DNA of 64,000 nucleotides from Escherichia coli. GTDB taxonomy: Bacteria > Pseudomonadota > Gammaproteobacteria > Enterobacterales > Enterobacteriaceae. The position numbers are program-made. Shown here in pieces: positions 44,201 to 47,200 of the stretch. The stretch's first letter is position 1; each line of letters begins with the position of its first letter. Location: NCBI RefSeq assembly GCF_016026235.1, contig NZ_CP065613.1; one strand, given 5' to 3'.

Positions 44201-47200
44201 TAATGCCGCTAATAAACACAAGCGGATGGCGTGGCTACGTTCATAAAGCCCCTTTTCCAACGAACTACTCAGGCGGGAAATTCTTTCCGCTAATAAATGA
44301 GGGTGAGCCATAATGAAGTGGCGTCCTTTCGTCAAAAGTTCTGCGTAAATTGCGAGTATAGACGTTTCTTGCTGGTGGCTAAAATAGTCTCAAAGGGGGG
44401 TAATGCCGATCAGTTAAGGATCAGTTGACCGATCCAGTGGCTGTGTAAGAATCCGGAAACGCTCACTTGTTTCCGGATTTTTTTATGCACATTGGACAGG
44501 CTCTTGATCTGGTATCCCGTTACGATTCTCTGCGTAACCCACTGACTTCTCTGGGGGATTACCTCGACCCCGAACTCATCTCTCGTTGCCTTGCCGAATC
44601 AGGTACTGTAACGCTACGCAAGCGCCGTCTTCCCCTCGAAATGATGGTCTGGTGTATTGTTGGCATGGCGCTTGAGCGTAAAGAACCTCTTCACCAGATT
44701 GTGAATCGCCTGGACATCATGCTGCCGGGCAATCGCCCCTTCGTTGCCCCCAGTGCCGTTATTCAGGCCCGCCAGCGCCTGGGAAGTGAGGCTGTCCGCC
44801 GCGTGTTCACGAAAACAGCGCAGCTCTGGCATAACGCCACGCCGCATCCGCACTGGTGCGGCCTGACCCTGCTGGCCATCGATGGTGTGTTCTGGCGCAC
44901 ACCGGATACACCAGAGAACGATGCAGCCTTCCCCCGCCAGACACATGCCGGGAACCCGGCGCTCTACCCGCAGGTCAAAATGGTCTGCCAGATGGAACTG
45001 ACCAGCCATCTGCTGACGGCTGCAGCCTTCGGCACGATGAAGAACAGCGAAAATGAGCTTGCTGAGCAACTTATAGAACAAACCGGCGATAACACTCTGA
45101 CGTTAATGGATAAAGGTTATTACTCACTGGGACTGTTAAATGCCTGGAGCCTGGCGGGAGAACACCGCCACTGGATGATACCTCTCAGAAAGGGAGCGCA
45201 ATATGAAGAGCTCAGAAAACTGGGTAAAGGCGATCATCTGGTGAAGCTGAAAACCAGCCCGCAGGCACGAAAAAAGTGGCCGGGACTGGGAAATGAAGTG
45301 ACAGCCCGCCTGCTGACCGTGACGCGCAAAGGAAAAGTCTGCCATCTGCTGACGTCGATGACGGACGCCATGCGCTTCCCCGGAGGAGAAATGGCGGATC
45401 TGTACAGTCATCGCTGGGAAATCGAACTGGGATACAGGGAGATAAAACAGACGATGCAACTGAGCAGGCTGACGCTGAGAAGTAAAAAGCCGGAGCTTGT
45501 GGAGCAAGAGCTGTGGGGTGTCTTACTGGCTTATAATCTGGTGAGATATCAGATGATTAAAATGGCGGAACATCTGAAAGGTTACTGGCCGAATCAACTG
45601 AGTTTCTCAGAATCATGCGGAATGGTGATGAGAATGCTGATGACATTGCAGGGCGCTTCACCGGGACGTATACCGGAGCTGATGCGCGATCTTGCAAGTA
45701 TGGGACAACTTGTGAAATTACCGACGAGAAGGGGAAGGGCCTTCCCGAGAGTGGTAAAGGAGAGGCCCTGGAAATACCCCACAGCCCCGAAAAAGAGCCA
45801 GTCAGTTGCTTAACTGACTGGCATTACTCAAAGGGGGGGTATTTTTCTTTGAGCCAGGTTAATGTGGCCGCATTTAGGAGTACGATTTTGCCGTTAATCG
45901 TGCATACTGTGCGCTTTTTTGTGGGCCAAGGGACTAAGCACACATTTCATATTTCAACGAAAGACTAGTCTATGAGCACTGATAATAAGCAATCATTGCC
46001 CGCGATTACCCTCGCGGCGATTGGAGTTGTCTACGGCGATATTGGTACCAGCCCGTTATATACACTTCGTGAATGTTTGTCCGGCCAGTTTGGTTTTGGC
46101 GTTGAACGCGATGCCGTGTTTGGCTTTTTATCGCTGATCTTCTGGCTGCTAATCTTTGTGGTTTCCATTAAATATCTCACCTTCGTGATGCGGGCAGATA
46201 ACGCTGGTGAAGGGGGGATCCTGACGTTGATGTCGCTTGCCGGGCGTAATACGTCGGCGCGAACCACATCAATGCTGGTGATTATGGGGCTAATCGGCGG
46301 CAGCTTTTTCTATGGTGAAGTCGTCATTACCCCCGCAATTTCGGTGATGTCAGCCATTGAAGGTCTGGAAATCGTCGCCCCGCAGCTGGATACCTGGATA
46401 GTTCCCCTCTCAATTATCGTTCTCACTTTATTATTTATGATTCAAAAACATGGCACGGCTATGGTTGGTAAGCTGTTTGCGCCGATCATGCTGACCTGGT
46501 TTTTGATTCTGGCAGGACTGGGGTTACGTAGCATTATTGCTAACCCGGAAGTGCTGCATGCGCTGAATCCGATGTGGGCGGTGCATTTCTTCCTTGAATA
46601 CAAAACGGTTTCTTTTATTGCATTAGGGGCAGTGGTGCTGTCGATTACGGGGGTCGAGGCGCTGTATGCTGATATGGGACACTTTGGTAAGTTCCCTATT
46701 CGTCTGGCGTGGTTCACTGTCGTATTACCTTCCTTAACTCTTAATTACTTCGGCCAGGGAGCGCTGTTGTTAAAGAACCCGGAAGCGATTAAGAACCCGT
46801 TCTTCCTTTTGGCACCGGACTGGGCGCTGATCCCACTGCTGATCATCGCCGCACTGGCGACGGTAATCGCCTCGCAGGCGGTTATCTCTGGCGTCTTTTC
46901 ATTGACGCGTCAGGCGGTACGTCTGGGATATTTGTCGCCGATGCGCATTATTCACACCTCCGAAATGGAGTCAGGGCAAATCTATATTCCGTTTGTGAAC
47001 TGGATGCTCTATGTCGCGGTCGTGATTGTGATTGTCAGCTTTGAGCACTCCAGCAACCTGGCGGCGGCGTACGGGATTGCGGTGACCGGAACCATGGTGC
47101 TGACGTCTATTCTCTCGACTACCGTGGCACGTCAGAACTGGCACTGGAATAAGTATTTTGTTGCGCTGATCCTGATTGCTTTCCTTTGTGTCGATATTCC

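Follow-up and report, generated by a model that had tools for sequence, protein, structure and literature searches.

A complete IS4 element between ravA and kup of Escherichia coli, at a spacer occupied by IS4 in both orientations and apparently hit repeatedly

The founding member of the IS4 family is the IS4 element of E. coli K-12 (insG, b4278). For the IS4 subgroup, target duplications of 10 to 13 bp and the end signature -AATR... are described (PMC2266710, Table 1). A mutation-accumulation study recorded 8 new IS4 insertions, and a literature search for IS4 together with kup or ravA returned nothing relevant.

The ravA-viaA operon sensitizes E. coli to aminoglycosides under the control of Fnr and sigma-S (PMC3893208, PMC10585395, and PMC9489729), with sigma-S dependence reported for aerobic and Fnr dependence for anaerobic conditions (PMC10585395), and a promoter fragment of 206 bp was used for its complementation (PMC3893208). 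The transcription start of ravA (yieN) was mapped 38 nt upstream of the ATG with the -10 box TCTATACT (Mendoza-Vargas et al., PMC2760140), and in the supplement of the same study the yieN -38 start is listed with aacgTCTATACTcgca. For kup, PMC2760140 gives three starts, at distances of 57, 135, and 213 nt from the ATG on its upstream side (Fig. 8 legend), and the kup entries of the supplement include the box gtgaGCCATAATgaag with the -35 box gaaaTTCTTTCCGctaa.

The stretch of DNA analyzed here, called the window, comprises 64,000 nucleotides of the E. coli contig NZ_CP065613.1 (RefSeq assembly GCF_016026235.1). The initial annotation had placed an intact IS4 between the divergent genes ravA and kup, and this was borne out by an element of 1,426 bp with an uninterrupted reading frame for 442 amino acids (aa) and a perfect 12-bp target duplication. 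The ATG of ravA (44311, minus strand) lies 89 bp and that of kup (45972) 145 bp from IS4, in agreement with the earlier figures of about 90 and about 146 bp. The features of the locus, in window coordinates, are as follows.

44309 to 44314, plus strand: distal kup promoter, -10 box CATAAT, for the -213 start at 44321, now pointing into the IS4 left end (PMC2760140 supplement)
44355 to 44361, minus strand: -10 box CTATACT of ravA, kept, start at about 44349 (PMC2760140 supplement and sequence)
44381 to 44384, no strand: A-run AAAA, left arm of the IS4 target, 4 nt left of the duplication (12-site alignment and weight-matrix scan)
44389 to 44400, no strand: left copy of the target duplication, 12 bp, CTCAAAGGGGGG
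44401 to 45826, plus strand: complete IS4 element, 1,426 bp, by end motifs, length, and terminal repeats, with the transposase gene codirectional with kup
44425 to 44452, plus strand: candidate IS4 transposase promoter TTGACC-16-AAGAAT, by consensus match only
44450 to 44484, plus strand: terminator-like hairpin followed by seven T, right before the transposase ATG (RNA fold)
44485 to 45813, plus strand: IS4 transposase gene, 442 aa, uninterrupted and without frameshift on translation, ATG at 44485, stop at 45811 to 45813
45827 to 45838, no strand: right copy of the target duplication, 12 bp, overlapping the kup -135 start at 45837 (PMC2760140, Fig. 8 legend)
45842 to 45846, no strand: T-run TTTTT, right arm of the IS4 target, 3 nt right of the duplication (12-site alignment and weight-matrix scan)
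45903 to 45915, plus strand: proximal kup promoter with the -10-like box CATACT, start -57 at 45915, kept (PMC2760140 and sequence)

The element was confirmed as an ordinary, intact copy of the classic E. coli IS4 (IS4 family, DDE transposase). Its left end at 44401 reads TAATGCCGATCAGTTAAGG and its right end, with 45826 as the last base, reads CTTAACTGACTGGCATTA; each of these motifs occurs exactly twice in the window, at 23598/25022 and at 44401/45826. The 18-bp terminal inverted repeats match at 16/18 positions (TAATGCCGATCAGTTAAG versus TAATGCCAGTCAGTTAAG). The transposase matched the Pfam families PF13006 Nterm_IS4 (114 bits, E = 3e-33) and PF01609 DDE_Tnp_1 (111 bits, E = 8e-32), both with scores far over the cut-offs, and the exact 442-aa sequence was present in 341 blocks of a public collection. 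The uninterrupted frame, the complete ends, the wide occurrence of this exact protein, and the empty site of the closest relative (see below) are indirect hints that this copy may be able to transpose. A size of about 1.4 kb, a single open reading frame, terminal repeats of about 18 bp with the -AATR... signature, the IS4 N-terminal and DDE domains, a 12-bp duplication, and near-identity to the reference IS4 were thus all found together, as in the IS4 subgroup. The K-12 IS4 shares the length of 1,426 bp, the ends, and the transposase domains, and it differs in its location, between yjgZ and nanX. Relative to the MG1655 resident copy, 1,420 of 1,426 bases were identical (99.6%, 6 differences), and the window copy carries four transposase substitutions relative to K-12 (I243L, G304A, R326L, and E417G).

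Removal of IS4 and one copy of the repeat yields a spacer of 222 bp, which is as long as its MG1655 counterpart and has an equal sequence by eye. The placement of the element between ravA and kup is extremely unlikely to be an assembly artefact. Insertion sequences often give rise to misassembly, and the window holds two almost identical copies of IS4, but the 12-bp duplication of native sequence is perfect at both junctions and the same architecture recurs in dozens of finished genomes, and a misplaced repeat copy was rejected on these grounds.

The element had been labeled as the second IS4 copy, and the other copy does exist at 23598 to 25022 (1,425 bp), with the duplication CACCGGTCGGCAG at 23585 to 23597 and 25023 to 25035. 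The two copies differ solely by a 1-bp deletion, located in an A-run, which cuts the transposase of the 23598 to 25022 copy to 271 aa. This copy is inserted within the glmS terminator, 25 to 38 bp 3' of the glmS stop codon (25060 to 25062), a position at or beside the Tn7 attachment point. The glmS-terminator insertion is common to 4 complete E. coli genomes, which is an undercount, since the query needs the variable lpf flank.

Among 5,426 complete E. coli genomes, IS4 was found at ravA–kup in the orientation of the window in 35 (34 with a longer query) and inverted in 37, giving about 72 carriers or about 1.3% of these genomes. The window's orientation is represented by IAI39 and CE10 and the inverted one by STEC17-190, VR50, and K-12 OV2, and in other E. 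coli the insertion bears the RefSeq label 'IS4-like element IS4 family transposase'. The initial annotation did not include this recurrence, a target-driven insertion in about 72 complete genomes and in both orientations. In all six loci inspected by sequence (window, IAI39, STEC17-190, strain 2-1, 23CRST038, and OV2), the insertion point and the 12-bp duplication were identical; IAI39 and OV2 thus share the exact target of the window in opposite orientations, as do IAI39 and STEC17-190.

This identity in every inspected carrier speaks for a single ancestral insertion spread by descent or homologous recombination, with no hotspot involved, an origin that nevertheless deserves next to no credence. 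Both orientations occur, which contradicts a clade of carriers with a single orientation, and the closest relatives of three carriers have an empty site with identical flanks. In FDAARGOS_943, the nearest genome, the two 3-kb flanks match those of the window at 100% and 99.93%, the ravA–kup site is empty, and neither of the window's two IS4 copies is present. Likewise, E24377A-type genomes have flanks 100% identical to those of the inverted carrier STEC17-190 and an empty site, and EC02 carries IS4 in the window's orientation, yet its flanks are 99.9% identical to STEC17-190. The alleles of IS4 point the same way: the element at this site matches the host's own copies, as seen for copies 1 and 2 of the window and for OV2, in which IS4 at ravA–kup equals the MG1655 resident element at 1,426/1,426 bases and the flanks equal MG1655 at 3,000/3,000 bases. 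The identity of both flanks and IS4 to MG1655 indicates a new transposition inside the K-12 laboratory lineage. Between lineages, the alleles at ravA–kup are 5 to 11 bases apart; the flank haplotypes of carriers differ by 0.5 to 1.7% over 3 kb, and IAI39 differs from the window at 98/6,000 flank bases and 5 bases of IS4. The single-origin reading was ruled out by the two orientations together with the allele data.

The ravA–kup spacer thus appears to be a recurrent IS4 hotspot, hit independently in both orientations, and by the comparison of flanks and alleles the lineage of the window seems to have gained its copy separately from other carriers. As the hits are recurrent and of both orientations, identical ravA–kup insertions are not evidence of shared ancestry. 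The window copy would most likely be a recent arrival derived from another IS4 of the same genome. Two further observations concern the genomes compared. In FDAARGOS_943, the run of G at the insertion point counts 6 instead of 7, so that the spacer measures 221 bp; this may reflect either true slippage or an error in sequencing the homopolymer. A 'tolC-' laboratory strain with K-12-identical sequence carries an inverted IS4 at ravA–kup and is identical to OV2 over 5,827 bp.

The target preference of the element was analyzed in 12 distinct IS4 sites, namely, 2 in the window, 9 from other genomes, and that of the MG1655 resident copy; the set from other genomes contained 10 IS4 loci with exactly this transposase, two of them being one site. 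An A-run of at least 3 A ended 3 to 4 nt left of the duplicated segment at 12/12 sites, and a T-run started 3 to 5 nt right of it at 11/12 sites, the sole exception (L010) having the A-run only. The duplications measured 12 bp at ravA–kup and 11 to 14 bp at the 11 other sites. The ravA–kup target reads TAAAA-TAGT-[CTCAAAGGGGGG]-GTA-TTTTT. Many of the 12 sites are obvious bidirectional terminators, e.g., AAAAAACCG-[GAGCACAGACTC]-CGGTTTTTT, and the ravA–kup site is unlike these terminator targets in that it lies between divergent genes and only mimics the geometry of the A-run and T-run. For most of the sampled insertions (L008 to L017 and window 23585 to 25035), the site was a hairpin with an A-run on one side and a T-run on the other, placed between genes in convergent or tandem order and resembling a bidirectional intrinsic terminator; IS4 may often split terminators.

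A crude weight matrix was built from the 10 sites outside the window and scanned over 61,124 positions of the IS-free window, in which the two occupied sites ranked first (glmS terminator) and seventh (ravA–kup). Mayaux et al. reportedly gave the IS4 target consensus as AAA-N20-TTT, with which the geometry of the 12 sites is in agreement. When this consensus was scanned over 443 bp of the reconstructed native region, from inside ravA to inside kup, it matched at the insertion point only, in two overlapping registers. Given the match to the A-run and T-run and the rank in the weight-matrix scan, the location of IS4 at ravA–kup is explained by the element's own target choice.

In all likelihood, the insertion is an ordinary one of IS4 into a preferred target or hotspot, with a small net effect. 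IS4 would pick an A-run, 3 to 4 nt, a segment of 11 to 14 bp to be duplicated, about 3 nt, and a T-run, a geometry typical of bidirectional intrinsic terminators that the ravA–kup spacer would mimic by chance. Such chance mimicry would lead to the same position being struck independently many times and in both orientations. In a rough comparison, ravA–kup, seventh by score, is occupied in more genomes than the top-scoring glmS site (4, an undercount); selection, or some factor that the simple motif does not capture, may therefore contribute to its occupancy.

The initial annotation had laid weight on an inverted repeat, CTCAAAG...CTTTGAG, in the native spacer. The repeat exists, with a 13-nt spacer, and the duplication begins with its left arm. 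When the 222-bp region was simulated with a first-order Markov model, however, 19% of the runs contained a perfect 7-bp inverted repeat; the RNA fold of the native repeat was no more stable than that of shuffled sequence (z = -0.96), and in the alignment of 12 sites the repeat was not common to the other IS4 targets. As a meaningful structure or as a target it was dismissed as being at chance level.

The effect on both genes was judged from published 5' ends. Counted from the ravA start, the edge of IS4 lies at -52, and native DNA beyond this point is replaced; the mapped core promoter of ravA would be intact, with ravA-viaA losing only the native DNA upstream of -52. On the kup side, IS4 ends at about -89 relative to the proximal start. 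The 12-bp duplication contains the -135 start (45837), whose promoter DNA on the kup side is replaced by the right end of IS4, and the CATAAT box of the -213 start overlaps the ravA start codon, left of IS4. The distal promoters are now 1.4 kb off and point into the left end of the element, which would reduce kup to its proximal promoter, with the other two cut off. The supplementary table of PMC2760140 seems to have exchanged the boxes of two kup starts, -57 and -213; the CATAAT over the ravA start codon can serve the -213 start only. The proposal that IS4 separates each gene from the distal part of a shared regulatory region thus holds insofar as the element splits the region and displaces the distal kup promoters, but the nearest mapped promoter of ravA and of kup is kept. 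The change in expression suggested by the initial annotation is reasonable as a prediction.

Within the element, the segment at 44450 to 44484 folds with -23.5 kcal/mol (z = -4.95), and 0/200 shuffled sequences were as stable. This hairpin probably stops transcripts coming from outside, including those of the two displaced kup promoters, which would run into the left end of IS4. The transcript start predicted for the candidate promoter TTGACC-16-AAGAAT falls within the left arm of the hairpin. It is plausible that the hairpin and the internal promoter-like site together shield the transposase from outside transcription while its own mRNA can still be translated. Every IS4 copy has this arrangement at the corresponding positions. 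A scan for the sigma-70 consensus found nothing in the native spacer, only the internal IS4 site in the IS-bearing region, and no outward-facing promoter-like site at either end of IS4, and a hybrid or outward promoter provided by IS4 had no support from these scans. By fold analysis, no T-run terminator follows the right end of the element, so that transcription of the transposase gene may weakly continue into kup. An Rfam search of 44000 to 46300 returned no RNA family even at E ≤ 1.

Selection may alternatively keep IS4 at this position, by rewiring ravA-viaA, whose lost upstream or Fnr activation would lower sensitivity to aminoglycosides, or by changing kup. Such an adaptive insertion is unlikely, although several observations speak for it. 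The independent occurrences are many and include laboratory K-12 strains with ravA–kup as the sole new IS4 copy, the occupancy exceeds that of the better-scoring glmS site, and ravA-viaA itself links the locus to aminoglycoside sensitivity under Fnr and sigma-S control (PMC3893208, PMC10585395, and PMC9489729). The best Fnr-like match also lies across IS4 from ravA. This match, TTGAGccagGTTAA, on the kup side of IS4, has 3 mismatches and is too weak to rely on; scans of the spacer with the Fnr and CRP consensus gave weak matches only, with at least 2 to 3 mismatches. If TTGAGccagGTTAA were a real Fnr site, ravA-viaA could lose its induction under anaerobic conditions, and the effect could then not be called small.

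On the other side, the near-even split of orientations, 35 versus 37, argues against selection acting through an outward promoter or read-through. Both the mapped promoter of ravA and the proximal one of kup are undisturbed, the site is predicted from target preference alone, and IS4 is present here in just about 1.3% of genomes. A tolerated, target-driven insertion accounts for the near-even orientations and the undisturbed proximal promoters better than does selection for one regulatory outcome. That the repeated retention reflects parallel regulatory evolution, in which ravA-viaA cut from upstream, possibly Fnr, control or kup left with one promoter is advantageous, is improbable; if true, it would be a case of IS-driven parallel regulatory evolution with a possible advantage such as reduced anaerobic uptake of aminoglycosides.

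For the preferred reading, a target-driven and tolerated IS4 insertion, the net fitness effect would probably be small. The importance of the locus is small as well: it is a textbook IS at a site of the kind that this element is known to prefer, and public annotation already shows this insertion for dozens of genomes. The recognition of ravA–kup as a recurrent IS4 landing site in both orientations is an only mildly useful addition. Strains with and without IS4 at ravA–kup form a natural set for dissecting the control region of ravA-viaA and kup.

Two minor observations were made besides. In E. coli 23CRST038, at about 3930 to 5220 of its locus, an IS3-family element is nested in the left end of the inverted IS4 at ravA–kup. 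In the window, lpfC for the long polar fimbria usher (19421 to 21964, minus strand) is interrupted at codon 474 of 848 by an in-frame TAG and is apparently a pseudogene here, while the annotation of FDAARGOS_943, a close relative, gives the gene as intact.
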